Source: an uncultured Bacteroidia bacterium
GTDB taxonomy: Bacteria; Bacteroidota; Bacteroidia; Bacteroidales; UBA932
DNA length: 64,000 bases
Reading direction: 5' to 3'
NCBI GenBank assembly: GCA_902773925.1
Contig: CACYGI010000002.1
Coordinates: forward strand, 160,990-224,989
The notes under the pieces are model-generated. The model did not search any database. It was not told where the DNA came from and worked only from the letters and a program-made list of their open reading frames with translations. The position numbers and the translations under genes are program-made. This document shows positions 7,173 through 26,598 of the stretch, piece by piece; the stretch's first letter is position 1; each line of letters starts with the position of its first letter.

Positions 7173-8216
7173 ATGAGGCAAGGTAGGGAAATAATCCTCT
7201 GGGCTGTGGCGTTGCTGGCCGGCAACGTGCTCGGATCGTCGCTGGCCCTGCCTGCCGCAGCTTATCTGACGGCTGCCCTGGCCTCAGCGCTCATCTCGCG
7301 GCGAAGGCCTTCGACCATCCTTTTCATTCTGACATTCATCCTGCTCGGAGCGGCTTCGGTGCAGATCTGCCGCCTGCCGCCCCTGCACGGCCCCTCATAC
7401 CTGGGCATCCTCTGCAGCGGTCTCAAAGCGCGTTTTTCGGCTTACCTGGGAGGCTTTTTCCCGCCTGGAGATGAACGCGCCCTGCTCCAGGCGCTGGTGG
7501 CCGGCGACCGCAGCGGCATCACCCGGCAGATACGCGGCGCATTCGGCGAGAGCGGCGCGATGCACCTGCTGGCGCTCTCCGGCCTGCATATAGGTATAGT
7601 ATATATGTTTGCCTCGCGCGTCCTGTCCCTGGCCGGCGGGAGCATCCCCGTTAGGCGTATCCGCTCGGCGCTGATTCTCGCGCTTCTCTGGGCCTATGCC
7701 TGCATCACGGGCCTCAGCCCTTCGATTTGCCGGGCCGTGACGATGATTACCATACACGAGATAGCGCTGGCCCGCAAGGCCTCGTCCGACCCTTTGCGCT
7801 CGCTTGCCATCGCCGCGATAGTCCTCGCCCTGGCTGATCCGGAGTGTCCGCGGGAGGCGGGATTCCAGCTTTCGTTTGCAGCCTGCCTGGGCATTTTCGT
7901 GATCTATCCGAGGCTGAAAGGGCTGCTCTCCACGCGGATGCGCATCATCGGCCGTATGTGGGACGGCGCCTGCCTTGCCATTGCCTGCCAGCTGACTGCC
8001 GGGATGCTCTCGTGGCGCTTGTTCGGCATCTTCCCGAAATATTTCCTGCTTACGCAGATGCTCGCCGTCCCGGTGGCCGGTGCGCTGCTCTATATGGTGC
8101 CGGTGATGCTGGCGGCGGCTCCCCTGCCCCATCTGCAGGGATTCCTCGCGCAGATTGCGCTGCATACGACGAAGCTGCTCTACGAGATCGTGCGGCTGAT
8201 CGCAGATCTATCGTAA
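7173..8216 (+). CDS. ComEC/Rec2-family membrane protein, short form (competence core domain only)
   Basis: LVAGDRSGITRQIRGAFGESGAMHLLALSGLHIGIVY motif; polytopic. No metallo-beta-lactamase domain in the 347 aa. Confidence 0.7.
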   Translation: MRQGREIILWAVALLAGNVLGSSLALPAAAYLTAALASALISRRRPSTILFILTFILLGAASVQICRLPPLHGPSYLGILCSGLKARFSAYLGGFFPPGDERALLQALVAGDRSGITRQIRGAFGESGAMHLLALSGLHIGIVYMFASRVLSLAGGSIPVRRIRSALILALLWAYACITGLSPSICRAVTMITIHEIALARKASSDPLRSLAIAAIVLALADPECPREAGFQLSFAACLGIFVIYPRLKGLLSTRMRIIGRMWDGACLAIACQLTAGMLSWRLFGIFPKYFLLTQMLAVPVAGALLYMVPVMLAAAPLPHLQGFLAQIALHTTKLLYEIVRLIADLS

Positions 8217-8256
8217 AGCAGCTTCAGTCCGGGAGCACGAGGCCCCGCGGCCGATA

Positions 8257-8781
8257 CTATTTGCGCCTTGCGGCCTTGGCGGCTTTGGCCGCCTCCTTCT
8301 CGCGGCGGCGGGCTTCCTTTTCGGCCTGGCGGGTCTCATAAGCGGCCTTCGAGGTGATGAGGATCACGCCGTTGGAGCCGCGCATGCCGTAGGATGCCGT
8401 ACTGCCGTCCTTGATGACATCTACCGAGTGGATATCGACCGGATTGACAGTACTCGTATCGAAAACTTCCGCACCGTCAAAGAGGATCAGCGGCTTGGAA
8501 GAGCCGTTGAACGTACCCATACCGCGGATGATGATATCGCCGCCCGAACTGAGCTCGATGCCGCTCACCTTGGCCAGCAGGTAATCCTCGAGGGTCCGAT
8601 AGGTAACCTGATCCATCTGGCTCACTTCGCTGTGGTCGATGGAAGCTGTCTCGGTAGTGATATATCCGTCACTGCGACGGGAAGACTGGTCTGCTGATGC
8701 CGTGCGTACGGTCGGACCGCAGCCGGTGGCGGCCGTCATAAGCGCAAGAGCGGCCGCGATGGATATGATGCTTGTTTTCAT
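8257..8781 (-). CDS. lipoprotein carrying an isolated TonB-dependent-receptor Plug domain and a K/A/R-rich tail
   Basis: Signal plus lipobox MKTSIISIAAALALMTAATGC. Plug-like IIIRGMGTFNGSSKPLILFDGAEV...IKDGSTASYGMRGSNGVILITSK. No beta-barrel. Tail EKEARRREKEAAKAAKAARRK. Start at the ATG at 8781. Confidence 0.65.
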   Translation of the reverse strand: MKTSIISIAAALALMTAATGCGPTVRTASADQSSRRSDGYITTETASIDHSEVSQMDQVTYRTLEDYLLAKVSGIELSSGGDIIIRGMGTFNGSSKPLILFDGAEVFDTSTVNPVDIHSVDVIKDGSTASYGMRGSNGVILITSKAAYETRQAEKEARRREKEAAKAAKAARRK

Positions 8782-8815
8782 ACTGCGAATATAGTACTTT
8801 TTAGAATAAAAAAAT

Positions 8816-8839
8816 AAGGGCAGCCCAAAAGCTGCCCTT
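8816..8839 (-). terminator. rho-independent terminator of susD1
   Basis: Minus-strand reading: AAGGGCAGC-TTTTGG-GCTGCCCTT followed by ATTTTTTTATT. Confidence 0.75.
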
Positions 8840-8863
8840 TTTGTCGTTATACCGTGCAACTGA

Positions 8864-10453
8864 TCATTCGTTGCTGGTAGAGGTGATACCCTTGTTGTAG
8901 TCAGTCTCGTTGCGGGGTATGATCCAGGTCCAGTTGTTTTTCTCGTTAGGCCCGAAAGTGACGGCGTAGGAGCTCATCCAGTTGCCGCCCTCAGCATAGG
9001 TCTGACGCGAGATGCTGTCACCCCAGCGCTTGAGGTCGAACCAGTTGAAGCCTTCGGCCCAGAGTTCGATGCCGCGATAGAGCTTGATCTGCTCCAGGAG
9101 CTCCTCACCTTCTGCGGTGCAGGTGTATGCCGGATCACGCAGCGAGGTCGCGTTGAGCTCGACCAGGAGGTCCCGCGCCTCTTCCTCCTTCTGCAGACGA
9201 TACTGAGCCTCGGCTTCGATGAGCAGCATTTCCGAAGAGCGCATCAGGCAGAGGTTGCCGATACCGGGCTGGATGTTGTTGCTGATCTTGAAGTTCATAT
9301 AGGCGAAGATGCAGTGTGTGGAAAGAAGCTCGTGACCGCGCTGTACTGCATAGTTCTGGCCATACACCCAGAGGCTGTTACCGGAGTTCTGCTTGTTTGC
9401 CTTCATCGTATTGGTGTTGAAGGTGCCTTCGTAGCCTGCGGGATCCAGCCAGAATGCACGGCGGATATCGGTCGCCGGAATCTGGTCGAACAGATGGCGG
9501 CTGATCAGGAGCGGATAGTTGCGGGTCGTGCTCGTCTGCGCGTTGTAGGCAGCGTAGCAGAAGTAGTCGTAGAAGTAGAGGGTCTCATCCTCCGCGCCGT
9601 AGATGTACCATATCCATTCGTCGTTAGGGTTGCTGAAACCTTTAAGCTCGTCCTCCACGCTCATCAGGGGATACTTTTCGTGAAGCATCTGTGAATACTT
9701 CAGAGCGTTAGCCCAGTCCTCGCGGGTGAGGGCCGCGCGTGCATAGACGCCGTACGCCACGTCGAGGTCCACGATGTGGTTGGACTTGCGGCTGTTGGCC
9801 TTGCCGGAAGCGTTGAAGAGCCCGATGGCATCGTCGAGGTCCTTATAGACCTGAGCGTAAACCTGAGCTGCGGTGGAACGGTCGAGGTTGTCGGGTTCGT
9901 CACCGGTAAGGCGAAGGACACAGGAGGGCTTGTCCGGGCCGTCAGACCAGCGGCGGCCGTAGATCTGGACGAGGTTGAAGTATGCGTAAGCGCGGTATGT
10001 CAGGGCCTGGGCCTTGAGGTATGCGCGCTCCGCTTCAGTACCCTCGGCATCGTCGATAGTCTTGATGATTGCGTTGGCGTTGCCGATCAGCATATAGTAG
10101 TAGTACCACGCATAAGAGTCGAGATTACGGGTATTGTTAAGGAACATGTTACCCGTCGCATCGCTCTGGAAGCCGGTTGAGTTACCCTTCATCAGGTTGT
10201 TGCCGAGGTACTCGCCGTAATAGAGGCGGACGGTACCTTCACCGTTGTAGCCCTGTCCGTATGCGCCGTACTGGCGGTGCATCAGCTTGCCGAGGCCGTT
10301 GACGGCCACGGCTGCAGCGTCGGTCGTCCCGAGGATAATGTCCGGCGAGGTGCTGCTGGTCGGATAGGTATCCAGATAGTCCTTTGAGCAGCCGAAAGAG
10401 ACGATAACTGCAAGGGCAAGTGCTATGATTGAAAATCTTTTCATATTCGTCAT
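8864..10453 (-). CDS. SusD/RagB family nutrient-binding outer membrane lipoprotein (copy 1)
   Basis: Lipoprotein signal ...VSFGCSKDYLD. Motifs LIGNANAIIK, RAYAYFNLVQIYG, IELWAEGFNWFDLKRWG. Sits 13 nt downstream of susC1. Confidence 0.92.
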   Translation of the reverse strand: MTNMKRFSIIALALAVIVSFGCSKDYLDTYPTSSTSPDIILGTTDAAAVAVNGLGKLMHRQYGAYGQGYNGEGTVRLYYGEYLGNNLMKGNSTGFQSDATGNMFLNNTRNLDSYAWYYYYMLIGNANAIIKTIDDAEGTEAERAYLKAQALTYRAYAYFNLVQIYGRRWSDGPDKPSCVLRLTGDEPDNLDRSTAAQVYAQVYKDLDDAIGLFNASGKANSRKSNHIVDLDVAYGVYARAALTREDWANALKYSQMLHEKYPLMSVEDELKGFSNPNDEWIWYIYGAEDETLYFYDYFCYAAYNAQTSTTRNYPLLISRHLFDQIPATDIRRAFWLDPAGYEGTFNTNTMKANKQNSGNSLWVYGQNYAVQRGHELLSTHCIFAYMNFKISNNIQPGIGNLCLMRSSEMLLIEAEAQYRLQKEEEARDLLVELNATSLRDPAYTCTAEGEELLEQIKLYRGIELWAEGFNWFDLKRWGDSISRQTYAEGGNWMSSYAVTFGPNEKNNWTWIIPRNETDYNKGITSTSNE

Positions 10454-10466
10454 ATTTTAGCTTGCA

Positions 10467-13400
10467 TTAAAGATTGACCTTTACGCCGACAGTAGCGACG
10501 CGCGGAATATTGACATAAGAACCGTAGATAAGTCCGCTCCAGGCCTGCTGGGGGTTCATACCCTTCTTTGCAGTGAAGGACCAGAGGTTATCAACGGATG
10601 CGCTGAGTACCAGACCATTCAGTCCCACTCTGCTAATCGTCCGTCTGGGGAAGGTATAAGCGAAGTTGACGTTCTTGATGGTCAGGTAGTTGCCGCTTAC
10701 AAGGAAACGGGTCGAAGTAGCGTTGCTGTAGGTGTTGTAGAATCCGTCGATACGAGGGGTGCCGGTCGGGTCGATACGGTTGGGCGAATCGGCAGTCATA
10801 CCTGCGGGAGCCTCGCTCCAGGAGTTGAGGAGGTCGATGTGATAAGCGTGGGGCCCCACTCCGACGGACATCAGGTCCTGATATGCATAGTCGAGGCACT
10901 TGCTGCCAAGGGCATAGGAGAACAGTGCGGAGAGGGTGAAGTTCTTGACGCGGAGGGAGGTATTGAAGTTACCGTAAACCTTCGGAAGAGAACTGCCACC
11001 CCAGTCACGCTTGGCGTAGGTAGTGTGAGTGACATACTCCTTGCCGTCGATTACGACACGGTATTCCTCGGGGACTATGGTCTTTTCGACCTCGTCGAAG
11101 CTGGAGCTGACATCGTGGGTCTCCTCGTACTTTTGCTGATTCCAGACCTTGCCCATCTTGTTCTCGTCCAGGATGTAATAATTATCATCGTCGATAGCGT
11201 AAAGAGCGAGACCGGTCAGCTGATCGACACCCACGAACTTGTAGAGATGCCAGTCATAGATGCCGTGGCCCTCAGCCCAGAGCTTGGTGCCGCTGCGCAT
11301 AGCGTTCTGCAGGCCGTCATAGTTGTAGATGTCGGCATCGGGGAGCTTGAGGATGGTGTTCTTCATCCAGGTAGCGTTGACACCGAAATTCCAGGTAACC
11401 TCGCGGGTCTTGATGATGTCCACGTCGATGCTTGTCTCGACACCGATGTTGCGAACCGAACCGATGTTCTTGGTGGTAGCGGTGGTGACGCTGCTGCCGG
11501 AGATACCGCCGACGGAGGTCGGGTGCTCGACATCGAAGAGCAGGTCGTGGGTGGTCTTGTTGAAGAACTCGAAAGTAAAGTTCAGGCGGTCGAACATACG
11601 GCCTTCGATAGCCGTGCTGAAAGAGTTCTCCGCCTCCCAGACGAGGTCAGGAGCTTCGTTCTGAGTCTTGTAGGAAGCTGCACTTCCGCCGTACTTGGAG
11701 CCGAGTCCGTAGAGGGCCATGTAACCATAGTAACCGACGGAAGCGTCGTTACCGACCTGACCGTATGATGCGCGGATGCGCAGATTATCTATCCAGGAGA
11801 CGTTCTTCATGAACTCTTCCTTGCTGATGACCCAGGTTGCACCCGCGGACCAGAAGTTACCCCAGCGGTAATCCCTGTGGAAACGTGAGGAACCGTCGCG
11901 GCGGAAACTTCCCTCGAGGAAGTACTTGTTAATGTAGTCGTATTTGACGCGTGAAAGATAACTCTCGAGGCGGTAGCCGCTCTGGTAACCTTCCATCGAA
12001 GTCATGGAATTGAGATTGTCGAGCTCTATACCGCCCGGCAGGGTCTGGTCCTGCTTGTAGAGGTAGGTGTACTCATACTGGTAGTAGTAGTTCTCGTGGC
12101 CTGCGAGGGCTTCCAGGGTATGGTCGCCGAACTCGCGATGCCAGTTGAGCAGTTGCTGGAACGTATAGTTCGTGTAGAGGTAGTCGGTACGGCTGGTACG
12201 GCCGTTTGCGCCGCGGCCGTCACCGATGATTGCGTTGTTGTAGGTACGGGTCTTGTCAGTGCGAAGGCCGAGGTCGCCCTTGATCGAGAAGGTGAAGTCC
12301 TTCAGGAAGGTGATGTCTGCATAAGCCTGTGCATTGGTGGTGACGCGCTGGTTGTAGCGGGTATCAAGCTGTGCCTCCCAGATGGCGCAACGGGCATTGT
12401 ACTGGGGTCGGCCGTAGAGTTCGCCGACATCGTACTGCTTCTGGCCGTTATCGTCGAGCATATAGGTGCCGTCCGGGTTGTGCATGAAGACCGGATAGAT
12501 AGGAGCCATCACGTGTGCCTGATACAGAGGGTTGGCAAATGTGGTGCTGCCGGTACTGCGGTAATTCCGGCCCTGCCAGGATGCGCTGATGTTGGCGCCG
12601 GCCTTCAGCCACTTCAGGGGAGAGATGCTGACGTTTGCGCGGCCGCTCCAGCGGAAGAAGTCCGAATTGATGGTCTGGCCTTCCTCGTCGAGGTAGCCAA
12701 GTGAGAAATAGTAGTTGCTTTTGCTGGACGCTCCGCTTCCGCTCACGTTGTAGTCCTGACGGTAACCGATGCGCATCGCGTGAGCCCACCAGTCGAGATC
12801 GTCATAACCGCTGCGGATGTTGGCTGCATAGTTGAACTTGCCGTCTGCGTCGAAGAGCGCCTCGGTGGGAACGTCAAAGATGTTGTACTCACCGATGTAG
12901 GTAAGGATATTGGTGCGGACGTCCTCTATGGCCTGTTCCCTGGTCATGCCGGCGCTGCTCATCAGGTTGTTCATATAACCCGTGAAGAATACCTGCATGA
13001 AGTCCTTTGCATCGACCTTGTCGTACTCGGGGAGTGCGCGGGTATAGATACCCTGGTTGATGCTAAGGGAGAGTCCGGCCCTGTCGCTCTTGCCGCGCTT
13101 GGTGGTGATGAGGATGACGCCGTTGGATGCGCGGTTGCCGTAGAGGGCTGCGGAGGTCGCATCCTTCAGGACGGTAAGGCTTTCGATATCGTTGGGGTTG
13201 ATATCACGCATGTTGCCGCCCATCGGAACACCATCGACGACATACAGGGGAGAGTTGTCACCGGTAACCGAACCGATACCGCGGATGCGGAGGCCGGCAC
13301 TGTCGCCAGGGTCACCGCCGGGAATGGCGAGGACACCGGTAACGGTACCGTCGAGTGCTGTCGAGACGTTGCTGATGGGGCGTTTTTCGATGGCGTCGCT

Positions 13401-13781
13401 ACGGACCGTGCTGATAGCGCCGGTCACGGACTCACGCCTTGCCACACCGTATGCCACGACGATCGTCTCTTCGAGCATCTCGGAACCCGGGGCGAGGATG
13501 ACATTAATGATTGTGCGCCCCTCGACTGCAACCTCCTGGGTCGTGTAACCTACGGAGCTGACGACGAGGGTGGCATTCTTTGCTACTGCAAGGGTATAAT
13601 TACCGTCAATGTCGGTAGCGACACCTATTGAAGTACCCTTGACGACGACGGATGCGAACGGAACTGGATCACCCGTAGCGCCATCCGTGACAATACCTTT
13701 TACCGTGATGTCCTGTGCGAACGCCGTGTTTCCGAAGAACATCGTGGCAAGTAATGCCAGAATAAGTCCTGATTTCTTCAT
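10467..13781 (-). CDS. SusC/RagA family TonB-linked outer membrane protein (copy 1)
   Basis: 1104 aa. Carboxypeptidase-regulatory-like N-domain (ITVKGIVTDGATGDPVPFASVVVKG...TDIDGNYTL). Plug (SLTVLKDATSAALYGNRASNGVILITTKRGK). Long barrel. Confidence 0.95.
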   Translation of the reverse strand: MKKSGLILALLATMFFGNTAFAQDITVKGIVTDGATGDPVPFASVVVKGTSIGVATDIDGNYTLAVAKNATLVVSSVGYTTQEVAVEGRTIINVILAPGSEMLEETIVVAYGVARRESVTGAISTVRSDAIEKRPISNVSTALDGTVTGVLAIPGGDPGDSAGLRIRGIGSVTGDNSPLYVVDGVPMGGNMRDINPNDIESLTVLKDATSAALYGNRASNGVILITTKRGKSDRAGLSLSINQGIYTRALPEYDKVDAKDFMQVFFTGYMNNLMSSAGMTREQAIEDVRTNILTYIGEYNIFDVPTEALFDADGKFNYAANIRSGYDDLDWWAHAMRIGYRQDYNVSGSGASSKSNYYFSLGYLDEEGQTINSDFFRWSGRANVSISPLKWLKAGANISASWQGRNYRSTGSTTFANPLYQAHVMAPIYPVFMHNPDGTYMLDDNGQKQYDVGELYGRPQYNARCAIWEAQLDTRYNQRVTTNAQAYADITFLKDFTFSIKGDLGLRTDKTRTYNNAIIGDGRGANGRTSRTDYLYTNYTFQQLLNWHREFGDHTLEALAGHENYYYQYEYTYLYKQDQTLPGGIELDNLNSMTSMEGYQSGYRLESYLSRVKYDYINKYFLEGSFRRDGSSRFHRDYRWGNFWSAGATWVISKEEFMKNVSWIDNLRIRASYGQVGNDASVGYYGYMALYGLGSKYGGSAASYKTQNEAPDLVWEAENSFSTAIEGRMFDRLNFTFEFFNKTTHDLLFDVEHPTSVGGISGSSVTTATTKNIGSVRNIGVETSIDVDIIKTREVTWNFGVNATWMKNTILKLPDADIYNYDGLQNAMRSGTKLWAEGHGIYDWHLYKFVGVDQLTGLALYAIDDDNYYILDENKMGKVWNQQKYEETHDVSSSFDEVEKTIVPEEYRVVIDGKEYVTHTTYAKRDWGGSSLPKVYGNFNTSLRVKNFTLSALFSYALGSKCLDYAYQDLMSVGVGPHAYHIDLLNSWSEAPAGMTADSPNRIDPTGTPRIDGFYNTYSNATSTRFLVSGNYLTIKNVNFAYTFPRRTISRVGLNGLVLSASVDNLWSFTAKKGMNPQQAWSGLIYGSYVNIPRVATVGVKVNL

Positions 13782-13795
13782 AAGATGATTTTTGG

Positions 13796-14974
13796 TTAAT
13801 GGGAAAATTTATTGATGGGTGTAAGGATACTTTTGATATATTTGGCGTCAATTTTTGAAATTTCCTTTTTCTGCTCTTTGTTACTATTCTCTTTAACATT
13901 CCGGGCAAGCCTATTCTCCGAAACAACCTTTACTGACCCTGAGAACCCAGCTTTGTGATAAAAGTTAGGGTTTGTAACCGAACCGTTGCGGCCAACGGTC
14001 CAGGACTCGAAAATACCCATCAGATTGTCTTTGCTGGAGCAGCAGATATAGCGCCTGAAAGCCATGGCGCTGCGATGTCCGCTGATCGAGCGGATCTGCA
14101 TTTCGGTCAGCCTGCCTTCGAGATAGAGGTTGGTGATGAAGCTGCGGCGCGCAGTGTGCGAGGAGACGAGGTTGCACTTCGGCGCGATGCTGGTGACCTG
14201 CCGCCCGCCGATGCGCTCTTCTATTTTGACCGTCTCGCCGATGCCGGCCATACGGCAAATCAACTTGATATCGTGGTTGAGGGACGAGGCCTTCACCGCA
14301 GGAAGCCTCCCGTTCCAACGGGCGAGGATTTGCATTACCTCCGGATATAATATAGGTATATATACTTCCGCGCCTGTCTTTTTCTGCCGCAGGCGGAATG
14401 CGAACCGCAGCTGCCCGTTCACCTTGAAAGAAAGGATATCCTCGGATGAGAGGCGGCAGTAGTCGGAAAACCGCTGCCCGGTCCAGCATCCGACCAGGAA
14501 AACATCCCGCGAGCGGACGAGCCCGCTGCCGGGCGGCAGTTCCAGCGAAGCTATGCGAAGAATCTCATCTTCATTGAGATACACCTTCTTCGCTTCGGTT
14601 ATTTCCTTGACCGTAACCGAATAATCCTGCAGGCCGCGAAGCGGACTTTCCAGAATTCCGTCGCGGTAGGCCGCACTCATAGCGGCCTTGAACAGGGCGA
14701 CGATCAGCGAACGCGTGCTGTCCCGGTACCGGCGCGTATCACAATAATTCAGCAAATTGTTGAGATCCTCGAGGCGAAGAGCCGAAATTTTTTTTTCTTT
14801 TTTCACGGTCGAGCAGTAGTCGCCCCAGAGGCGGCCGAACTTCTCCCAGGAAGCAATCGCACTTTCAGAATAGGGGTAACCCCTGAAGAGAAGGCGTTGC
14901 TCTTTCATCGCCGTGATTCGTCTTTCAATAAAAAGAGAGAGGGTCAATCCCTTTTTTTTGTAAAATAATTTCAT
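13796..14974 (-). CDS. tyrosine site-specific recombinase (integrase family)
   Basis: Catalytic signature present: CWTGQRFSD (Arg I), HTARRSF (HxxR), GHRSAMAFRRY (His/Tyr). An AT-rich ~75-aa extension follows the catalytic Tyr. An alternative ATG is at 14908. Confidence 0.9.
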   Translation of the reverse strand: MKLFYKKKGLTLSLFIERRITAMKEQRLLFRGYPYSESAIASWEKFGRLWGDYCSTVKKEKKISALRLEDLNNLLNYCDTRRYRDSTRSLIVALFKAAMSAAYRDGILESPLRGLQDYSVTVKEITEAKKVYLNEDEILRIASLELPPGSGLVRSRDVFLVGCWTGQRFSDYCRLSSEDILSFKVNGQLRFAFRLRQKKTGAEVYIPILYPEVMQILARWNGRLPAVKASSLNHDIKLICRMAGIGETVKIEERIGGRQVTSIAPKCNLVSSHTARRSFITNLYLEGRLTEMQIRSISGHRSAMAFRRYICCSSKDNLMGIFESWTVGRNGSVTNPNFYHKAGFSGSVKVVSENRLARNVKENSNKEQKKEISKIDAKYIKSILTPINKFSH

Positions 14975-15248
14975 GGCTTTTCAAAGAAAAATAGTATTTC
15001 AAAAGAAAAATATCTATATTTGTAGTTAATCATAACTAGGCTAGGTATGCCGTGTGCATCCCTGGCGGTTGGGATTTTTATTTTGGTTTAACGTTATTAA
15101 TAATAATACATAGCAGGTTTGCCGCAACGACAAAACAGCAGCAGTTACAAACCCTAACGCGCAGAAAGCGCGATAAGACGTATCGAGAAGTACCGTTCCG
15201 GTAACAACTTGCTACAAAGAGCGTTCCAGACTTAGAAGAGACACTAGA
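13817..15248. other. unique central segment between the inverted arms (recombinase plus promoter region); putative invertible module
   Basis: No homology between the two sides here. Visibly lower GC than the flanks, especially 13796-13960 and 14975-15120. Confidence 0.6.
15015..15022 (+). promoter_or_regulatory. canonical Bacteroidetes -7 box (TATATTTG) facing susC2
   Basis: Exact TAnnTTTG match in AT-rich context, ~260 nt upstream of the susC2 ATG. No equivalent motif lies upstream of susC1. Confidence 0.55.
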
Positions 15249-15283
15249 ATCAACCTATATTCCTATTAACCAAAAGTCATCTT

Positions 15284-18200
15284 ATGAAGAAATCAAGACT
15301 TATTCTGGCATTCCTTGCCTTGATGCTCATCGGAAGCACGGCTTTCGCACAGAACATCACGGTCAAAGGTACTGTCACGGATGGGGCCACGGGTGATCCC
15401 GTTCCGTTCGCATCCATCGTCGTCAAGGGTACTTCTACCGGTGTCGCTACCGACATTGACGGTAATTATACCCTTGCAGTAGCAAAAAATGCTACCCTCG
15501 TCATCAGCTCCATAGGTTACACGACCCAGGAAGCTGCAGTCGAAGGTCGCACAGTCATTAACGTCATCCTCGCTCCGGATACCGAGATGCTCGATGAGAC
15601 CATCGTCGTGGCTTACGGTGTGGCAAAGCGTGAGTCCGTCACCGGTGCTATCAGCACGGTGAAGAGTGACGCCATCGAGAAGCGCCCTATCAGCAACGTC
15701 TCGAACGCACTCGACGGTACCGTTACCGGTGTCCTCGCAATTCCCGACGGTGACCCTGGCGAGAGCGCAGGCATCCGCATCCGCGGTGTCGGTTCGGTCA
15801 CTGGCGAAAACTCTCCCCTGTATGTCGTCGACGGTGTTCCGATGGGCGGCAATATGGGCGATATCAACCCCAACGATATCGAGAGCCTTACCGTCCTGAA
15901 GGATGCGACCTCCGCAGCCCTCTACGGCAACCGCGCATCCAACGGTGTCATCCTCATCACCACCAAGCGTGGCAAGAGCGACAAGGCAGGCATCTCCCTG
16001 AGCGTCAACCAGGGTATCTTCACCCGCGCACTCCCCGAGTACGACAAGGTCGATGCAAAGGACTTCATGCAGGTATTCTTCACAGGTTATATGAACAACC
16101 TGATCAGCAACGCCGGCATGACCAAGGAGCAGGCTATCAACGATGTCCGTACCAACCTCTTCACCTACATCGGTGAGTACAACATCTTCGACGCTCCCAC
16201 CGAGACCCTCTTCAATGCAGAAGGCAAGTTCAACTATGCAGCCAACATCCGCGGCGGTTATGACGACCTCGACTGGTGGAAAGTCACCATGCGTACCGGC
16301 TACCGTCAGGACTACAACGTGAGCGGCAGCGGCGCATCCGAGAAGAGCAACTACTACTTCTCCCTGGGTTACCTCGATGAGGAAGGCCAGACCGTCAATT
16401 CGGACTTCTCCCGCTGGAGCGGCCGTGCAAACGTCAGCATATCTCCCCTGAAGTGGCTGAAGGCAGGCGCCAACATCAGCGCATCCTGGCAGGGCAAGAA
16501 CTACCGCAGCACCGGTGCCACCACCTACGCCAACCCTCTGTATCAGGCACACGTGATGGCTCCTATCTATCCGGTCTATATGCACAACCCGGACGGTACC
16601 TATATGCTCGACGACAACGGCGAGAAGCAGTACGATGTCGGTGAGCTCTACGGCCGTCCCCAGTACAACGCCCGCTGCGCCATCTGGGAGGCTGCTCTCG
16701 ACACCCGCTACAACCAGCGCGTCACCACCAATGCACAGGCTTATGCCGACATCACCTTCCTGAAGGACTTCACCTTCTCGATCAAGGGCGACCTCGGCCT
16801 TCGCACTGACAAGACCCGCACCTACAACAACGCAATCATCGGTGACGGCCGCGGCGCAAACGGTCGTACCAGCCGTACCGACTACCTCTACACGAACTAC
16901 ACGTTCCAGCAGCTGCTCAACTGGCGTCACGAGTTCGGCGACCACACCCTGGAAGCCCTCGCAGGCCACGAGAACTACTACTACCAGTACGAGTACACCT
17001 ATCTGTACAAGCAGGATGAGACCCTGCCCGGCGGTATCGAGCTCGGCAACTTCAACTCCATGACCTCCATGGACGGCTACCAGAGCGGCTACCGCCTCGA
17101 GAGCTACCTCTCCCGCGTCAAGTACGACTACCTCAACAAGTACTTCATCGAAGGCAGCTTCCGTCGTGACGGTTCCTCACGTTTCCACAAGGACAACCGC
17201 TGGGGTAACTTCTGGTCCGCAGGTGCAACCTGGGTCATCAGCAAGGAAGAGTTCATGAAGAACGTTTCGTGGATCGACAACCTGCGCATCCGCGCATCCT
17301 ATGGTCAGGTCGGTAACGACGCTTCCGTCGGTTACTACGGTTATATGGCTCTCTACGGCCTCGGCTCCAAGTACGGCGCCGCAGCTGCATCCTACAAGAC
17401 TCAGAACGAAGCCGCTGACCTCGTCTGGGAGGCTGAGAACTCTTTCAGCACGGCTATCGAAGGCCGTATGTTCGACCGCTTGAACTTCACTTTCGAGTTC
17501 TTTAACAAGACCACCCACGACCTGCTCTTCGACGTCGAGCACCCGACCTCCGTCGGTGGTATCTCCAGCAGTGACATCACCACCGCTACCACCAAGAACA
17601 TCGGTTCGGTCCGCAACCTCGGTGTCGAGGCAAGCATCGACGTGGACATCGTCAAGACCCGCAATGTCACCTGGAACGTGGGCGTCAACGCTACCTGGAT
17701 GAAGAACACCATCCTCAAGCTCCCCGATGCCGACATCTACAACTATGACGGCATGCAGAACGCTATGCGTAACGGCACCAAGCTCTGGGCCGAGGGCCAC
17801 GGCATCTATGACTGGAACCTCTATCAGTTCCTCGGCGTGGACCAGCTGACCGGTCTCGCTCTCTACGCTATCGACGATGAGAAGTACTACATCCTCGACG
17901 AGAACAAGATGGGCAAGGCCTGGAATCAGGAGAAGTATGAGGAGACCCACGATGTCGACTCCAGCTTCGACGAGGTCGAGAAGACCATCGTTCCCGAAGA
18001 CTACCGCGTCGTCATCGACGGCAAGGAGTATGTCACCAATACCACCTACGCAAAACGCGACTGGGCGGGCAGTTCTCTCCCGAAGGTTTACGGTAACTTC
18101 AATACCTCCCTCCGCATCAAGAACTTCACCCTCTCCGCACTGTTCTCCTATGCACTCGGCAGCAAGTGCCTCGACTATGCATATCAGGACCTGATGTCCG

Positions 18201-18598
18201 TCAGCACGAGCCCTCACGCTTATCACGTGGACGTCCTCAACTCCTGGAGCGAGGCTCCCGCAGGTATGGATGTTGATTCGCCCAACCGTATCGACCCGAC
18301 CGGCACCCCTCGTATCGACGGCTTCTACAACACCTACAGCAACGCTACTTCGACCCGTTTCCTTGTAAGCGGCAACTACCTGACCATCAAGAACATCAAC
18401 ATTGCTTACACCTTCCCCAAGCGCCTGGTCAACAGCATCGGTCTGAACGGTCTGGTACTCAGTGCATCCGTTGATAACCTCTGGTCCTTCACCGCAAAGA
18501 GGGGCATGAACCCTCAGCAGGCTTGGAGCGGCCTTATCTACGGTTCTTATATCAATACTCCGCGCGTCGCTACTGTCGGCGTGAAGGTCAATCTTTAA
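15284..18598 (+). CDS. SusC/RagA family TonB-linked outer membrane protein (copy 2)
   Basis: 1104 aa, collinear with copy 1 without indels. Roughly 85-90% aa identity by eye. Confidence 0.95.
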   Translation: MKKSRLILAFLALMLIGSTAFAQNITVKGTVTDGATGDPVPFASIVVKGTSTGVATDIDGNYTLAVAKNATLVISSIGYTTQEAAVEGRTVINVILAPDTEMLDETIVVAYGVAKRESVTGAISTVKSDAIEKRPISNVSNALDGTVTGVLAIPDGDPGESAGIRIRGVGSVTGENSPLYVVDGVPMGGNMGDINPNDIESLTVLKDATSAALYGNRASNGVILITTKRGKSDKAGISLSVNQGIFTRALPEYDKVDAKDFMQVFFTGYMNNLISNAGMTKEQAINDVRTNLFTYIGEYNIFDAPTETLFNAEGKFNYAANIRGGYDDLDWWKVTMRTGYRQDYNVSGSGASEKSNYYFSLGYLDEEGQTVNSDFSRWSGRANVSISPLKWLKAGANISASWQGKNYRSTGATTYANPLYQAHVMAPIYPVYMHNPDGTYMLDDNGEKQYDVGELYGRPQYNARCAIWEAALDTRYNQRVTTNAQAYADITFLKDFTFSIKGDLGLRTDKTRTYNNAIIGDGRGANGRTSRTDYLYTNYTFQQLLNWRHEFGDHTLEALAGHENYYYQYEYTYLYKQDETLPGGIELGNFNSMTSMDGYQSGYRLESYLSRVKYDYLNKYFIEGSFRRDGSSRFHKDNRWGNFWSAGATWVISKEEFMKNVSWIDNLRIRASYGQVGNDASVGYYGYMALYGLGSKYGAAAASYKTQNEAADLVWEAENSFSTAIEGRMFDRLNFTFEFFNKTTHDLLFDVEHPTSVGGISSSDITTATTKNIGSVRNLGVEASIDVDIVKTRNVTWNVGVNATWMKNTILKLPDADIYNYDGMQNAMRNGTKLWAEGHGIYDWNLYQFLGVDQLTGLALYAIDDEKYYILDENKMGKAWNQEKYEETHDVDSSFDEVEKTIVPEDYRVVIDGKEYVTNTTYAKRDWAGSSLPKVYGNFNTSLRIKNFTLSALFSYALGSKCLDYAYQDLMSVSTSPHAYHVDVLNSWSEAPAGMDVDSPNRIDPTGTPRIDGFYNTYSNATSTRFLVSGNYLTIKNINIAYTFPKRLVNSIGLNGLVLSASVDNLWSFTAKRGMNPQQAWSGLIYGSYINTPRVATVGVKVNL

Positions 18599-18611
18599 TG
18601 CAAGCTAAAAT

Positions 18612-20207
18612 ATGACGAATATGAAAAGATTATCAATCATAGCACTTGCCCTTGCAGTTATCGTCTCTTTCGGCTGCTCAAAGGACTATCTGGATACCTA
18701 TCCGACCAGCAGCACCTCGCCGGGCACGATCCTCGGTACGACCGACGCTGCAGTCGTGGCTGTCAACGGCCTCGCCAAACTGATGCACCGCCAGTACACT
18801 GCCAGTGCATACGGACAGGGCTACAACGGTGAAGGTACCATCCGCCTCTACTACGGCGAGTACCTCGGCAACAACCTGATGAAGGGTAACTCTACCGGCT
18901 TCCAAAACTCGGCCAACGGTAACCTCTATGTTTCCAACTCGGCCGCCCTCGGTTCCTTTGCATGGTACTATTACTACATGCTGATCGGCAACGCCAACAC
19001 CATCATCAAGACCATCGACGATGCTGAAGGCACCGACGCGGAGCGCGCTTACATCAAGGCCCAAGCCCTGACATACCGCGCTTACGCATACTTCAACCTC
19101 GTTCAGATCTACGGCCGCCGCTGGAAGGACGGTTCCGACAAGCCGGCTTGCGTCCTGCGTCTTACCGGTGACGAACCCGACAACCTCGACCGCGCTACCG
19201 CTGGCGAAGTTTACGACCAGATCTACAAGGACCTCAACGATGCTATCGAGCTCTTCAACGCTTCGGGCAAGGCCAACAGCCGCAAGTCCAACCACATCGT
19301 TGACCTCGACGTGGCGTACGGCGTCTTTGCACGCGTAGCCCTCACCAAAGAAGACTGGGCTAACGCTCTCAAGTATTCACAGCTGCTTCACGCGAAGTAT
19401 CCTCTGATGAGCGTGGCTGAGGAGCAGGCTGGTTTCAGCAACCCGAACAACGAATGGATATGGTACATCTACGGCGCGGAGGATGAGACACTCTACTTCT
19501 ACGACTACTTCTGCTACGCTGCTTACAACGCACAGACCAGTACGACACGTAACTACCCGATCCTTATCAGCCGCCATCTGTTCGACCAGATCCCGACGAC
19601 CGATATCCGCCGTGCATTCTGGCTGGATCCCGCAGGCTACGAGGGCACCTTCAACACCAATACGATGAAGGCAAGCACACAGTCTTCCAAGAACAGGCTC
19701 TGGGCATATGGCCAGAACTACGCCGTACAGCGTGGTCACGAGCTTCTCTCCACCCACTGCATCTTCGCTTATATGAACTTCAAGATCAGCAACAACATCC
19801 AGCCCGGTATCGGACACCTCTGCCTGATGCGCTCTTCGGAAATGCTGCTTATCGAAGCTGAGGCTCAGTATAATCTGAAGAAGGAAGCTGAGGCTCGCGC
19901 TCTCCTGGTTGAGCTCAACGCAACCTCGAAGCGTGACCCGGCTTACACCTGCACCGCAAGCGGCGAGGCCCTCATGGAGCAGATCAAGCTCTATCGCGGC
20001 ATCGAGCTCTGGGGCGAAGGCTTCAACTGGTTCGACCTCAAGCGCTGGGGTGACAGCATCTCTCGTCAGACCTATGCTAACGGCGGCAACTGGATGAGTT
20101 CCTACGCTGTCAGCTTCGGCCCCAACGAGAAGAACAACTGGACCTGGTGCATTCCTCGTAACGAGACTGACTACAACAAGGGTATCACCTCTACCGCCAA
20201 CGAATAA
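18612..20207 (+). CDS. SusD/RagB family nutrient-binding outer membrane lipoprotein (copy 2)
   Basis: 531 aa, same motifs as copy 1. Same 13-nt susC-susD spacer. Confidence 0.92.
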   Translation: MTNMKRLSIIALALAVIVSFGCSKDYLDTYPTSSTSPGTILGTTDAAVVAVNGLAKLMHRQYTASAYGQGYNGEGTIRLYYGEYLGNNLMKGNSTGFQNSANGNLYVSNSAALGSFAWYYYYMLIGNANTIIKTIDDAEGTDAERAYIKAQALTYRAYAYFNLVQIYGRRWKDGSDKPACVLRLTGDEPDNLDRATAGEVYDQIYKDLNDAIELFNASGKANSRKSNHIVDLDVAYGVFARVALTKEDWANALKYSQLLHAKYPLMSVAEEQAGFSNPNNEWIWYIYGAEDETLYFYDYFCYAAYNAQTSTTRNYPILISRHLFDQIPTTDIRRAFWLDPAGYEGTFNTNTMKASTQSSKNRLWAYGQNYAVQRGHELLSTHCIFAYMNFKISNNIQPGIGHLCLMRSSEMLLIEAEAQYNLKKEAEARALLVELNATSKRDPAYTCTASGEALMEQIKLYRGIELWGEGFNWFDLKRWGDSISRQTYANGGNWMSSYAVSFGPNEKNNWTWCIPRNETDYNKGITSTANE

Positions 20208-20231
20208 TCCGTTGCACGGTATGACAATAGC

Positions 20232-20262
20232 AAGGGTGGCTTTCGGGCCACCCTTCTTTTTT
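20232..20262 (+). terminator. rho-independent terminator of susD2
   Basis: AAGGGTGGC-TTTCGG-GCCACCCTT followed by CTTTTTTTAT. Confidence 0.75.
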
Positions 20263-20287
20263 TATAGCGGTATTCGCAAGAAATGTG

Positions 20288-20295
20288 TATCTTTG
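20288..20295 (+). promoter_or_regulatory. -7 box (TATCTTTG) for mutAB
   Basis: Exact TAnnTTTG, 33 nt upstream of the ATG at 20328. This argues against the track start at 20283. Confidence 0.5.
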
Positions 20296-20327
20296 CGGAT
20301 TATTATCAACATAAACAATTGTCACGA

Positions 20328-22211
20328 ATGACTAAAAAACTCTTTACCGAATTCCCTCCCGTGACGACGGAGCAGTGGGATGAGGTGATCATCAAGGACT
20401 TGAAGGGCGGCGACTACGAGAAAAAGCTCGTCTGGCGCACCCTCGAAGGGTTCCCGGTAAGGCCTTACTATCGCGCCGAGAACCTCAAGGACATCCCTTT
20501 TACCGGCATTGCGCCGGGTGTATTCCCCTATGTCAGGGGCGTTGAAGCTGACAACAAATGGCTTACCCGCCAGGACTACTGCCTGTGCGAGGGCATCGAA
20601 GAGGCCAACGCGCTGGCTCTCGACGGCCTCTGCAAGGGTGTCGAGTCCGTCGGATTCCGCATCAACGGCAAGGAAGGTCTTGACAAGGCAGGATTCGCGA
20701 AACTGCTCAAAGACATCGTCCTTCCCGCAGTCGAAGTCAACTTCACGCACTGCATGCCCCGCACGGCCGTATCGACCGTCAAGGCATTTATCGAGTATGT
20801 AAAGGAGCAGGGCATCAAGCCCGAAGAGGTACGCGCGTCATTTGACGTAAGTCCTCTCCATATGCTCACGGTACGCGGCACACTCAACCCCGCGAAGGGT
20901 TATGAGATCCTCGCAGAGTGCATCCGCCTCACGGCAGATTACCCCCACGTCCAGGTTGTGAACGTAGCGGGCTATGATTTCAACGACGCCGGAGCAGGTA
21001 TCGTCCAGGAGCTCGCATTCGCGCTGGCCATCGGCAGCGACTATATGGCAGGCCTTACGGCACTCGGCCTCGACGCTTCGCTGATCGCCTCCAAGATGCG
21101 TTTCACCCTCGCCGTCAGCTCCAATTATTTTATGGAGATCGCCAAGTTCCGCGCAGCGCGCGTTCTCTGGGCCAACATCGCAAAGGCTTACGGTGCAAAG
21201 GAAGAAGCTTGCAAGATCTGCACTCACGCCGTCACCAGCGCCTGGAACCAGACCGTCTATGACGCGTATGTCAATATGCTCCGCGGCACGACCGAGGCAA
21301 TGAGCGCCGCCATCGCAGGCGTCCACTCGCTCACGGTCCTGCCCTTCGACAAGGCATTCCGCAAGCCGGGCGAATTCTCGAACCGCATCGCACGCAACGT
21401 GCAGTCCATCCTCAAGGAGGAATCCCGTTTCGACAAGATCGTGGATCCTGCAGCAGGTTCGTACTACATCGAGACTCTTACCAATTCCATCATAAACGCT
21501 GCCTGGACTCTCTTCAAGAGCGTCGAGGAGAAGGGCGGCTATCTGGAGGCATTCAAGGCAGGCTTCGTCCAGAGCCAGATCAAGGCTACGGCCGAGAAGC
21601 GCGATATGAACATCGCTACCCGCCGCGACACCATCCTTGGTACCAACCAGTTCCCCAACTTCCTCGAGAAGGCGTCCGACGAGATCACCGAGGACATCGT
21701 CAAGCGAGGCGCGAAGAAATGCTGCTGCGCCTGCAAGGACGAGAGCGAGAAGATCGCAGAGCCGCTCGAGAAGTATCGCGGCGCACAGGTATTCGAGGCG
21801 ATGCGCCTCGCTACCGACCGCAGCAAGCACCAGCCGGTCGTATTTATGCTGACCTTCGGCAACCTTGCGATGTGCCGCGCACGCGCTCAGTTCAGCTGCA
21901 ACTTCTTCGCAGTGGCAGGTTTCAAGGTTGTGGACAACAACCGCTTCGCAAGCGTCGAAGAGGGCATCAAGGCCGCTCTTGAGGCAAAGGCCGACATCGT
22001 CGTAGCCTGCTCGGCGGATGACGAGTACCTCGAGGCAGTTCCGCAGATCGCAAAGGGCATCGGCAATAAGGCTGTAGTGGTCGTCGCCGGTGATCCCGAG
22101 TGCCGCCCGCAGCTCGAAGAGCAGGGCATCAAGAACTTTATTCACGTCCGTTGCAACATCCTCGAGACTCTCAAGGAGTACCAGAAGATGATGGGCATCA
22201 GCGAACTTTAA
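20328..22211 (+). CDS. mutA: methylmalonyl-CoA mutase small (beta) subunit
   Basis: MTKKLFTEFPPVTTEQWDEV N-terminus, mutase fold motifs. The C-terminal Rossmann-like domain lacks the DxHxxG cobalamin motif. Confidence 0.85.
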   Translation: MTKKLFTEFPPVTTEQWDEVIIKDLKGGDYEKKLVWRTLEGFPVRPYYRAENLKDIPFTGIAPGVFPYVRGVEADNKWLTRQDYCLCEGIEEANALALDGLCKGVESVGFRINGKEGLDKAGFAKLLKDIVLPAVEVNFTHCMPRTAVSTVKAFIEYVKEQGIKPEEVRASFDVSPLHMLTVRGTLNPAKGYEILAECIRLTADYPHVQVVNVAGYDFNDAGAGIVQELAFALAIGSDYMAGLTALGLDASLIASKMRFTLAVSSNYFMEIAKFRAARVLWANIAKAYGAKEEACKICTHAVTSAWNQTVYDAYVNMLRGTTEAMSAAIAGVHSLTVLPFDKAFRKPGEFSNRIARNVQSILKEESRFDKIVDPAAGSYYIETLTNSIINAAWTLFKSVEEKGGYLEAFKAGFVQSQIKATAEKRDMNIATRRDTILGTNQFPNFLEKASDEITEDIVKRGAKKCCCACKDESEKIAEPLEKYRGAQVFEAMRLATDRSKHQPVVFMLTFGNLAMCRARAQFSCNFFAVAGFKVVDNNRFASVEEGIKAALEAKADIVVACSADDEYLEAVPQIAKGIGNKAVVVVAGDPECRPQLEEQGIKNFIHVRCNILETLKEYQKMMGISEL

Positions 22212-24900: not shown

Positions 24901-26586
24901 TTAGTCGTCGATCTCTTCCTTGAACATATTGATCGGGAAACGAGCCAGGATGTCAGCCTTCTTCGTGTACCAGATATTGTACTTGCCGCTGGCGTTCTTG
25001 TCATAAGAACGATAGTAGTAGCACATCGTCTCGAATGCAGCATCAGTATAGTACTTGTAACCGGTCATAACTGCGGTCGAGCCGGACTCGTCAATCGTAC
25101 AGATGGCAATCGGGGTAAAGAGAGGGGTGTTCTGGGCCGAACTGCCGATGACGCCGAACATACCGCCACGGCACTTATATTCCAGACCGTCAGATGACGA
25201 CTTCTGAGTAGAGCTGTATGTAAGCATATGGTTGAGAATAACCATATTGCCGGTTGTCTGATCATACTCTGCCCAGTACTTGGTAGTGGTACCGGCCCAG
25301 CCGGTAAACTGGAAGACCTCATCAGGATTCTTGCTGGTAATATCAAGAGTATAGGTCACAGGCTCATTGTTGATGGTCTCGCCTACGAGAGTCCACTTGC
25401 CGATCCACTTGTTGAAACCGTCGGAAGAGGTGGTACCCTGCTTGGGAGTCCACTGGCGGATAAGATATGCTCCCGTCGGCTCCTTAGCCTCGTCAAACTG
25501 CATCACCAGGACATAGAACGTAGCCTCCGGAGGGAAGACGAATCCCATACGGTAATTCTTGTTGCCTTCGAGGAGACTCCTCTCACCGGAGAGAACCTTT
25601 GCTGCAAGGTCGTTCTTAGCGGCCTCGTAAGAAGAACCGTAATGACTGGTGAACTCGGAATACTGGAAGTATATATATGCCCAGGTGCCGGGGACACCCA
25701 TAATCTGAACGCGATCCGAACCGTCATCTGCACCACGACGGGCATAGACGATATCCCAGTCGATATTGTCGATGGTCTTGGTCAGCATCTCGCCGCGATC
25801 CACGTGAAGATTCTCATACACGCACTTGGTTTCCTCGTAATAATAGGCATATTCGTCGAGGATACCGAACTGCAGGTCGGGGTAATCACCGACAGGCAGC
25901 GGAGCATAGAAAGTGACGGGGCCCGTACCCTCAAGCTCCTCAGGAATCTCAAACCAGAGGCTGCTGTTCGTCCTTCCGGACGGAAGCGGACCTGCAGGAA
26001 TGATCAGATCCTCCTCGTCAGCGTAATCCTTGATGGTGAAGTCGCCATAGAGCTGAATGCTGTTGGAACGGACAAAGAACCAGCCCGCCCCACGCGGAAC
26101 GTGGTTGATGGTAACTGCCAGGAGACCGCTCATATGCTTGAACTGCAGGCCACCCGCATCCTCGCCGCTGAAAGTGGCGACCATCGGAGAGAAAGTACGG
26201 TCAGCCTCGAATATCCGGTTCTGCGGGATATGGATCGTCAGATCCGTACCTGCGGAAACAGCGATATCGGAAGGCATAACGGCAACCTTCTCAACCGAGA
26301 CACCGGGAACGAGGCTGGTAAACTCAGCCACCTTGGTGCCGGCGCCGTCAGTAAGGTTGAAAGGAGTAAAACCGGTCGTACCGGCAAGATTGACAGCGAT
26401 GGTATCGCCGTACTGCCAGGAGAATTCGCCGGTCGCGGAGACGGCCGAGCGTGTCTGCGGGGCGACTGTAGCGCGAAGGACGACTTTCTCGCCTTCGTCA
26501 GTAACATTGGCGGGAGCGAAAGATTCGCGTGCGCAGCCCATCACAACCGTGAGAGCAGTCGCAAAGATGATAGCAAATTTCTTCAT
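24901..26586 (-). CDS. surface lipoprotein, N-terminal fimbrillin-like region (tentative)
   Basis: Signal plus lipobox MKKFAIIFATALTVVMGC. The N-terminal pattern (TRSAVS...FSWQYGDTIAV...FKHMSGLLAV) resembles Bacteroidales fimbrillin-family proteins. The C-terminal part has a WIGKWTL motif. Family call is from memory only. Confidence 0.5.
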   Translation of the reverse strand: MKKFAIIFATALTVVMGCARESFAPANVTDEGEKVVLRATVAPQTRSAVSATGEFSWQYGDTIAVNLAGTTGFTPFNLTDGAGTKVAEFTSLVPGVSVEKVAVMPSDIAVSAGTDLTIHIPQNRIFEADRTFSPMVATFSGEDAGGLQFKHMSGLLAVTINHVPRGAGWFFVRSNSIQLYGDFTIKDYADEEDLIIPAGPLPSGRTNSSLWFEIPEELEGTGPVTFYAPLPVGDYPDLQFGILDEYAYYYEETKCVYENLHVDRGEMLTKTIDNIDWDIVYARRGADDGSDRVQIMGVPGTWAYIYFQYSEFTSHYGSSYEAAKNDLAAKVLSGERSLLEGNKNYRMGFVFPPEATFYVLVMQFDEAKEPTGAYLIRQWTPKQGTTSSDGFNKWIGKWTLVGETINNEPVTYTLDITSKNPDEVFQFTGWAGTTTKYWAEYDQTTGNMVILNHMLTYSSTQKSSSDGLEYKCRGGMFGVIGSSAQNTPLFTPIAICTIDESGSTAVMTGYKYYTDAAFETMCYYYRSYDKNASGKYNIWYTKKADILARFPINMFKEEIDD

Positions 26587-26598
26587 GACGCGTCCCTC

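Follow-up and report, generated by a model that had tools for sequence, protein, structure and literature searches.

Analysis of a 64,000-nt stretch of DNA from an uncultured Bacteroidia bacterium (Bacteroidales; UBA932; GenBank assembly GCA_902773925.1, contig CACYGI010000002.1, positions 160,990 to 224,989), hereafter called the window, revealed a locus in which a tyrosine recombinase gene and a single putative promoter lie between two mirror-image operons, each encoding a SusC/SusD pair. The segment carrying the recombinase and the promoter, here termed the invertible module, is found in both orientations in nature, between two intact SusCD operons that have no promoter of their own. The locus very probably constitutes a self-contained site-specific DNA-inversion toggle, in which recombination between two 15-bp sites flips the recombinase-promoter module. 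Sample labels suggest that the uncultured Bacteroidales source stems from ruminant gut.

The invertible module and its two orientations

The module is bounded by a perfect 15-nt inverted repeat with the core GTTA-GGGTTTG-TAAC in both copies, and these two copies are the only matches with up to 2 mismatches in the whole window, compared with 0.08 expected. The short repeat was spotted by comparing the centre of the locus with related loci that had been fetched via recombinase homologues. Both sites are located in the leaders of the operons, 182 nt (left) and 125 nt (right) upstream of the susC ATGs, and thus outside the two long homologous arms formed by the operons themselves, which start 148 nt (left) and 91 nt (right) away from the repeat. 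Coordinates of all features are compiled in Table 1.

Table 1 Features of the switch locus in the window; state A denotes the orientation seen here
Feature	Position	Strand	Details
Invertible module	13964..15158	.	1195 bp; recombinase codons 1-337, recombinase upstream region, outward promoter
Left site IRL, GTTAGGGTTTGTAAC	13964..13978	+	GTTA, 7-nt spacer, TAAC
Right site IRR, GTTACAAACCCTAAC on the + strand	15144..15158	-	exact reverse complement of IRL
Tyrosine recombinase, open reading frame (ORF) in the present orientation	13796-14974	-	392 aa; Pfam Phage_integrase PF00589
Bacteroidetes-type -7 box TATATTTG (TAnnTTTG), putative promoter	15015..15022	+	facing susC2; single copy in the module
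Fixed leader L, IRL to susC1 ATG	13782..13963	-	182 nt; currently doubles as recombinase tail-coding region
Fixed leader R, IRR to susC2 ATG	15159..15283	+	125 nt; only the last 35 nt shared with leader L
Cassette 1 (susC1-susD1)	8806..13816	-	called from repeats, ORFs, Pfam/NCBIfam and hairpin; currently downstream of the recombinase
susC1	10467-13781	-	1104 aa
susD1	8864-10453	-	529 aa
Cassette 1 terminator hairpin	8816-8839	-	
Cassette 2 (susC2-susD2)	15249..20265	+	called from repeats, ORFs, Pfam and hairpin; currently downstream of the promoter
susC2	15284-18598	+	1104 aa
susD2	18612-20207	+	531 aa
Cassette 2 terminator hairpin	20232-20255	+	

Inversion of the module would change the 3' end of the recombinase gene. 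Residues 1-337 are encoded inside the module while residues 338-392 (13796-13963) result from read-through into the fixed susC1 leader, and the predicted ORF of the flipped state, from now on called state B, encodes 342 aa with the C-terminus NPNAQKAR. Predictions of the flipped-state recombinase were made from the window allele and from six strain variants, and each was searched as an exact sequence in a set of ~15 billion public proteins. The prediction derived from allele P0125 exists as public protein P0240; the other 6 of the 7 predictions, including those for the window allele and the hypothetical flipped form of the sister-species locus L026, were absent from this collection.

The contig encoding P0240 (L037; Logan, run SRR23387593, 1875 nt) represents the window locus with exactly the module inverted. 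Positions 1-383 are collinear with window positions 13596-13978 (99.2% identity), positions 369-1564 correspond to window positions 15158 to 13964 in inverted order (99.5%) and positions 1550-1875 are again collinear, matching 15144-15469 (99.1%). Both junctions are letter-for-letter as predicted beforehand for a flip at the 15-nt sites. The two ends of the contig carry susC1-type and susC2-type 5' sequence at 99% identity, compared with 88.7% and 89.1% for the alternative arm (at the left end, positions 1-221 match susC1 at 99% and susC2 at 88.7%), and leaders L and R stay with their own susC gene. Since each cassette kept its own leader, the crossover took place at the 15-nt sites and not in the arms. 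Logan contigs are assembled from k-mers exceeding 15 nt in length, so that a 15-nt repeat should not give rise to a misjoin of this type. The P0125 allele is found in state A in four other contigs, three of which are metagenome assemblies, and the flank shared by L037 and the state A locus L041 is identical at 383/383 positions. Nearly identical strains differ by the module flip alone.

State A is the orientation of nine fetched loci (the window, L001-L003, L013 and L038-L041). Two scans of Joint Genome Institute (JGI) metagenome contigs, one with either junction state and one with the recombinase 3' end plus the repeat, returned zero matches, and the organism is apparently absent from that JGI metagenome set.

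The recombinase, the putative promoter and related loci

Six catalytic residues of the recombinase (R168, K199, H273, R276, H300 and Y309) are invariant in 28 homologues and all of them are encoded within the module. A profile built from the homologues gave weak matches to lambda Int and XerA, and a PDB search with the recombinase as a single sequence found no match. NCBIfam scans of the recombinase and its relatives P0023 and P0007 yielded no invertase-family match at E<=0.001; the window recombinase matched a single NCBIfam model, XerA, with a score of 22.7 bits (cut-off 220). Scanning genome contigs with the recombinase returned only distant integrases (24-37% identity), none with susC nearby. 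Homologues at 55-58% identity are 329-330 aa long and end before their own site. In the window, the recombinase ORF reads through the left repeat, with the consequence that its stop falls 14 nt before the susC1 ATG. The susC1 leader is open in the recombinase frame in both the window species and the sister species: over 55 codons in the window (13796-13963 on the - strand) and, in the hypothetical flipped state of L026, over 64 codons (~8060-8266), with the two tails being loosely alike (shared SGSVK.VS).

The -7 box TATATTTG is invariant and always directed away from the recombinase in an alignment of 5 loci whose surroundings are otherwise poorly conserved. No -7 box is present on the recombinase strand within the module, and no TAnnTTTG could be found in leader R or on the susC1 strand of leader L. 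No site resembling a terminator was called in the interval from the recombinase to susC1. An Rfam search over 8000-21000 detected no known riboswitch or leader RNA. Two more TAnnTTTG matches (TACTTTTG and TATATTTG) are located on the + strand of the susC1 leader (13828-13844) and directed into the module, antisense to the recombinase tail, where they would converge on the switch promoter in state B. By eye, the L026 leader has no obvious counterpart, and they are probably chance matches. Further, a weak terminator-like hairpin with a T-run (ATCCCTGGCGGTTGGGAT TTTTATTTTG) is found inside the module at 15058-15085 (+), starting ~36 nt past the -7 box. Whichever way the module is oriented, it could attenuate transcription; no conservation was apparent by eye in L026 or L027.

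The sister-species locus L026 encodes a recombinase 87% identical to that of the window, of 342 aa and with the tail NPNARNGR. Synteny is as in the window (ackA, ComEC, a 174-aa Plug-only ORF, susD, susC, followed further on by the mutase), and both 15-nt sites are identical to those of the window. The L026 module is inverted relative to the window, with outer flanks collinear up to the sites and with the promoter facing the sole intact cassette. The second L026 cassette is reduced to a remnant (9655-9837) in which the 5' end of susC2, having lost its ATG, is fused to the 3' end of susD2. At greater distance, L036 and L015 (recombinase 57% identical) each contain a mirror-image pair of intact cassettes, which share only ~71% identity along most of their length, with the perfect site pair GTTAGGATTCATAAC at the same two positions. 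L014 and L028-L035 (recombinase 55-56% identical) possess one cassette and the remnant of a second, which in L014 (7450-7600) consists of a susC 5' end joined to a susD 3' end, and have kept their sites. The fact that the switch sites are perfect in single-cassette relatives with deletion remnants implies that two-cassette toggles decay into ON/OFF switches.

Pairs of GTTA-N7-TAAC surround the recombinase and promoter in L026, L027, L036, L014, L028, L016 and L022, and matches to GTTA-N7-(T/C)AAC near the recombinase amount to just one inverted pair per examined locus. Between L028 and L014, a paired change is seen in both partner sites (GGATTTA/TAAATCC versus GGATTCA/TGAATCC), as would be predicted if strand exchange required the two spacers to remain identical. 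Overall, conservation of the promoter box and of the site pair with its position extends down to 55% recombinase identity, and that of the GTTA-N7-TAAC core down to ~40%. At this lower limit, in the L016-L022 clade (recombinase ~40% identical), the core lies within the signal-peptide codons of susC (GTTACTCGTGGTAAC, or ...GGCAAC in the partner), and the second susC of L016 and L022 lacks the ATG and the first 10 codons. A flip in this clade would exchange the start of the signal peptide. The recombinase stop abuts the recombination site in both loci (L016 11045-11060, L022 11739-11760), and in L022 the recombinase is separated from the silent susC by an additional insertion of ~800 bp that contains a small ORF on the reverse strand. 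Cassette content varies more widely than the module: the right cassette of L036 shows 74-76% protein identity to the window type and its left cassette 52-56%, while the sole L026 cassette shows ~44%. The conserved unit is thus the recombinase-promoter module, with the cassettes representing replaceable cargo.

An earlier note on this DNA, made from the window alone, had proposed a two-state promoter switch operated by crossing-over anywhere in the 5-kb susCD arms; such crossing-over would be either RecA-dependent or assisted by the recombinase. The arms would seem suitable for this purpose, being inverted 5.0-kb copies with ~90% identity and exact matches extending over up to 91 nt; they do recombine, given that strain differences are mostly the other arm's bases with a few sites reciprocally swapped, and promoter inversion at the sap locus of Campylobacter fetus works by arm recombination. 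However, the two independent inversions observed, one within the species (L037) and one between species (L026), have their breakpoints in the 15-nt repeat, leaders and susC 5' ends stay with their own cassette, exchange between the arms is mostly one-way, and related species have retained the short site perfectly although most of the length of their arms shows no more than 71-73% identity. We consider arm crossing-over extremely unlikely as the main switching mechanism. What stands of the earlier proposal is the existence of two states, now seen in assemblies of the same species, and the arrangement that a flip was said to produce, with the promoter given to susC1 and the recombinase placed in front of susC2, as found in L037. 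Its whole-operon repeat unit has to be replaced by the 15-nt repeat, which also lies inside the centre that had been described as unique and as holding only the recombinase and an AT-rich promoter region. The intact catalytic signature of the recombinase, the single canonical -7 box facing susC2 (the only TAnnTTTG within 13964-15158) and the lack of a promoter motif or called terminator between recombinase and susC1 were all correctly recognised; the 14-nt spacing between recombinase stop and susC1 was also accurate, but is only a by-product of the present orientation.

The SusCD cassettes and gene conversion between the arms

The inverted arms are each ~5.0 kb long and overall ~90% identical, with 1432 nt of unique centre separating them. 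A repeat search resolved them into 10268-13816/15249-18797 (3549 nt at 91%), 8806-10123/18948-20265 (1318 nt at 88%) and, between these longer pieces, a third of 117 nt (10148-10264/18807-18923). Homology extends from 35 nt ahead of each susC ATG to just beyond each susD terminator hairpin, the stems of which differ between the two arms by compensatory changes. Divergence is fairly even, with 81-99% identity per 100 nt in most windows along the arms and a longest exact run of 91 nt.

SusC/RagA identity of the SusC ORFs is indicated by TIGR04056 (728 bits, cut-off 368) together with the signature TIGR04057, and both SusD genes match SusD-like_3 and SusD_RagB, as expected for SusD-family lipoproteins encoded directly after SusC. 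Both susC genes have a complete ATG and signal peptide. The SusC proteins are 90.3% identical (synonymous divergence, dS, 0.31; ratio of nonsynonymous to synonymous divergence, dN/dS, 0.17) and the SusD proteins 87.6% (dS 0.36, dN/dS 0.20). These values indicate that the two cassettes are intact, maintained functional SusCD variants under purifying selection. In none of the 50-codon sliding windows of the cassette genes did dN exceed dS, so there is no sign of an arms-race hotspot. The structural description given in the earlier note, comprising collinear mirror-image arms, the ORF lengths and the extent of homology from 35 nt upstream of susC through the susD terminator hairpin, was borne out by the repeat search, the ORFs and the arm comparison, and its view of the cassettes as two maintained alleles, neither a recent duplication nor a decaying copy, agrees with the intact genes and low dN/dS.

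Comparison of strains revealed exchange between the arms. In L001 (6377-9691 compared), susC1 is 100% identical to the window, and 10 of 10 differences in susC2 fall into one 76-nt tract (window 15946-16021, susC2 nt 663-738) in which every altered base is that of susC1; the tract is altered in susC2 alone. In L038, the base of the other arm is found at 37 of the 62 susC1 differences and 44 of the 117 susC2 differences, where ~2-4 would be expected (P below 1e-34). Most exchange patches are one-way, with both arms ending up with the same base, and few sites are reciprocally swapped. This distribution of bases indicates that the arms recombine mainly by short-tract gene conversion and not by crossing-over. 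Inter-arm gene conversion makes dS uneven along the genes and may also keep the arms near 90% identity (89.9-90.7% in four strains), compared with ~71% for the L036 cassettes.

To the left of the locus, the neighbouring genes are acetate kinase (ackA), a ComEC-like gene and a 174-aa Plug-only ORF, while two methylmalonyl-CoA mutase subunits are encoded to the right (Pfam). The 174-aa ORF (8257-8778, - strand) follows immediately on the susD1 terminator and begins with an ATG of its own and a signal-peptide-like stretch; its only domain is a TonB Plug domain, which carries the SusC/RagA signature TIGR04057. An ORF of the same length occupies the same place in L001 and L026. It is either a small protein consisting of the plug alone or what is left, in stable form, of the 5' end of a third susC. 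The ComEC-like ORF (7173-8216, + strand; 347 aa), which converges on it, covers positions 1-237 of the 270-position Competence domain profile and looks short for ComEC/Rec2, with a similar 333 aa being called in L026.

Further to the right, a separate and unrelated SusC/SusD locus (26886-35649, + strand) encodes a SusC of 1112 aa, a SusD of 531 aa, a Peptidase_Mx1 protein and DUF4302/DUF4987 and BACON-domain proteins. The SusCD pair of this locus (26886-31826) was considered as a third cassette and rejected: its SusC is only ~32% identical to susC2 in the N-terminal third and ~21% in the C-terminal half, and the pair belongs to its own polysaccharide utilization locus. The locus is situated between the mutase and esterase/GyrB-like genes, which adjoin in L014. 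The interval between the mutase and this third SusC (24901-26757) is occupied by two long ORFs that overlap on opposite strands (- strand, 561 aa; + strand, 509 aa), neither of which matches Pfam.

Switching model and comparison with known phase-variable loci

In the proposed mechanism, the encoded tyrosine recombinase would cut and rejoin DNA within the identical 7-bp spacers of the two sites, thereby flipping the module. In state A, the promoter would read through IRR and the 125-nt leader into susC2-susD2, with the recombinase ORF exiting via IRL toward susC1-susD1. In state B, transcription would proceed through IRL and the 182-nt leader into susC1-susD1, and the recombinase, now of 342 aa, would be aimed at susC2. 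Because neither fixed leader contains a -7 box, the promoter-proximal cassette is expected to be the strongly expressed one, and the distal cassette would receive at most read-through from the recombinase gene. The 5-kb arms would not serve as substrate for the inversion and would in addition exchange short patches by gene conversion.

A number of points weigh against this model. The promoter is called from its motif and the conservation of that motif, and the attribution of the flip to the local recombinase and not a distant one follows from co-location. Public consensus assemblies show a strong skew, with ~43 contigs in state A and one contig in state B, so that switching may be rare or strongly biased, or state A may be favoured. 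Moreover, the distal cassette keeps its ATG, and as no terminator-like site was called ahead of it, it may be expressed at some level.

The skew would also fit an alternative in which the inversions reflect infrequent rearrangement during evolution at an integrase site that is now a relic, rather than programmed phase variation, with the cassettes being conventionally regulated; similarly, a single orientation is found in all 8 contigs of the L028 species and in the 6 places shown for the P0023 species. However, the promoter box is conserved along with the site pair and its position, the spacer change is paired, catalytic residues are intact, and nearly identical strains differ by the flip alone. 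Consensus assemblies show the majority orientation only, and a skew is thus expected even for an active switch. Taken together, we regard the relic scenario as very unlikely. The orientation-dependent C-terminus of the recombinase (392 versus 342 aa) could feed back on switching and explain the bias toward state A.

A different question is how strict the choice would be. The switch may be real without being either/or, in that both SusCD pairs are made and only their ratio changes, or it may act mainly as an ON/OFF device for one cassette. The short distance between the recombinase stop and the susC1 ATG in state A, with no terminator-like site called between them, and the complete start codons and signal peptides of both susC genes would be in line with joint expression, the L016/L022 clade providing a comparison in which the second susC copy has no ATG. 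Single-cassette relatives (L026, L014 and L028) keep their repeats, meaning that the module can act there only as an ON/OFF switch. On the other hand, the missing -7 box on the recombinase strand suggests a weak recombinase promoter, recombinase genes are usually expressed at low levels, and the fixed leaders of the cassettes are devoid of -7 boxes. A non-exclusive or one-sided switch therefore appears rather unlikely, and we favour a toggle that is ON for one operon in each orientation.

With regard to purpose, the two window variants are of the same transporter type (90% and 88% protein identity), which fits surface or receptor variation with function retained. The L036 cassettes are of different types, which fits a choice between transporters. 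It is possible, although doubtful, that the window locus acts as a two-layer variation engine in which the toggle picks the displayed SusCD pair and gene conversion continually rewrites both copies into new mosaics, with the unexpressed copy serving as donor. If true, this would resemble silent-cassette antigenic variation, applied to a nutrient transporter.

Several known systems share parts of this architecture. The H-segment of Salmonella Hin likewise places an invertase gene and a promoter on a short flipping segment bounded by inverted repeats, through which a surface protein is selected. Hin differs in being a serine invertase that turns one operon ON or OFF and controls the second antigen indirectly, whereas the window toggle would be ON for one operon each way. 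Invertons of the fimS type and the PhaseFinder-type invertons of Bacteroidetes also carry a promoter on a short segment bounded by inverted repeats. In Campylobacter fetus, a single invertible promoter lies between opposed sapA S-layer cassettes, with either/or expression as the outcome, and inversion uses the conserved 5' regions of the cassettes and depends on RecA. The window locus resembles the sap system in having one promoter and opposed homologous cassettes that also recombine, but possesses a dedicated 15-bp site and a recombinase instead.

Closer precedents are found among SusC/SusD loci, and a domain-wide survey found SusC/RagA genes to be enriched among programmed-inversion targets. 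The two examples brought up in the earlier note, from Bacteroides fragilis and the B. thetaiotaomicron BT1040-BT1046 locus, are genuine and both work differently in detail from the window locus. The BT1040-BT1046 shufflon was shown experimentally to require the local tyrosine recombinase BT1041 and to use a 7-bp crossover core (Porter et al. 2020; bioRxiv 10.1101/521070). Similarities to the window include a tyrosine recombinase encoded in the susC/susD locus, one promoter serving alternative operons and a core of ~7 bp. In contrast to BT1040-BT1046, the window sites are positioned in 5' untranslated leaders, there are two mirror-image cassettes and not three operons, and the promoter-recombinase module itself flips. 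As a result of this location, a flip exchanges no coding sequence and leaves both susC genes complete (1104 aa), whereas in BT1040-BT1046 recombination falls within the 5' coding part of susC and the alternative susC copies are truncated there, staying silent until they are joined to the expressed 5' end, as is also the case in L016/L022. Unlike in BT1040-BT1046, no pair of extracytoplasmic function (ECF) sigma and anti-sigma factors is encoded among the genes adjacent to the window cassettes, and the N-terminus of the window SusC proteins matches only CarboxypepD_reg and Plug in Pfam, with no extra anti-sigma-contact domain.

In B. fragilis, secondary sources describe susC/susD "intergenic shufflons" under the control of the global invertase Tsr0667. 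Here too, DNA inversion by a tyrosine recombinase decides which SusC/SusD (RagA/B-like) pair is expressed. Tsr0667 reportedly acts distantly on many loci, with repeats overlapping susC start codons, and large segments carrying gene pairs are said to be moved behind a promoter. Unlike Tsr0667, the window recombinase is local, has no NCBIfam invertase match and is associated with a different core site. The reported Tsr0667 consensus AGTYYYN4GDACT was tried as a candidate and rejected, with 15 window matches at <=1 mismatch compared with 11.7 expected and none at the site.

The window locus represents a minimal natural toggle, consisting of one recombinase, one promoter, two 15-bp sites and two complete operons, and the compact module could serve as a genetic toggle part for Bacteroidetes. 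The recombinase clade and the core GTTA-N7-TAAC provide queries for metagenomes, both orientations can be quantified from reads with the help of the exact coordinates, and a 90%-identical transporter pair offers a clean test of phage, bacteriocin or antibody evasion versus substrate tuning. To our knowledge, phase-variable SusC/SusD systems have been worked out only in a few cultured Bacteroides, where they involve global invertases, multi-operon shufflons and coding-sequence swaps. Phase variation of SusC/SusD as such is already known; what sets the present locus apart is that the recombinase clade and the site differ and that the toggle is simpler in design.

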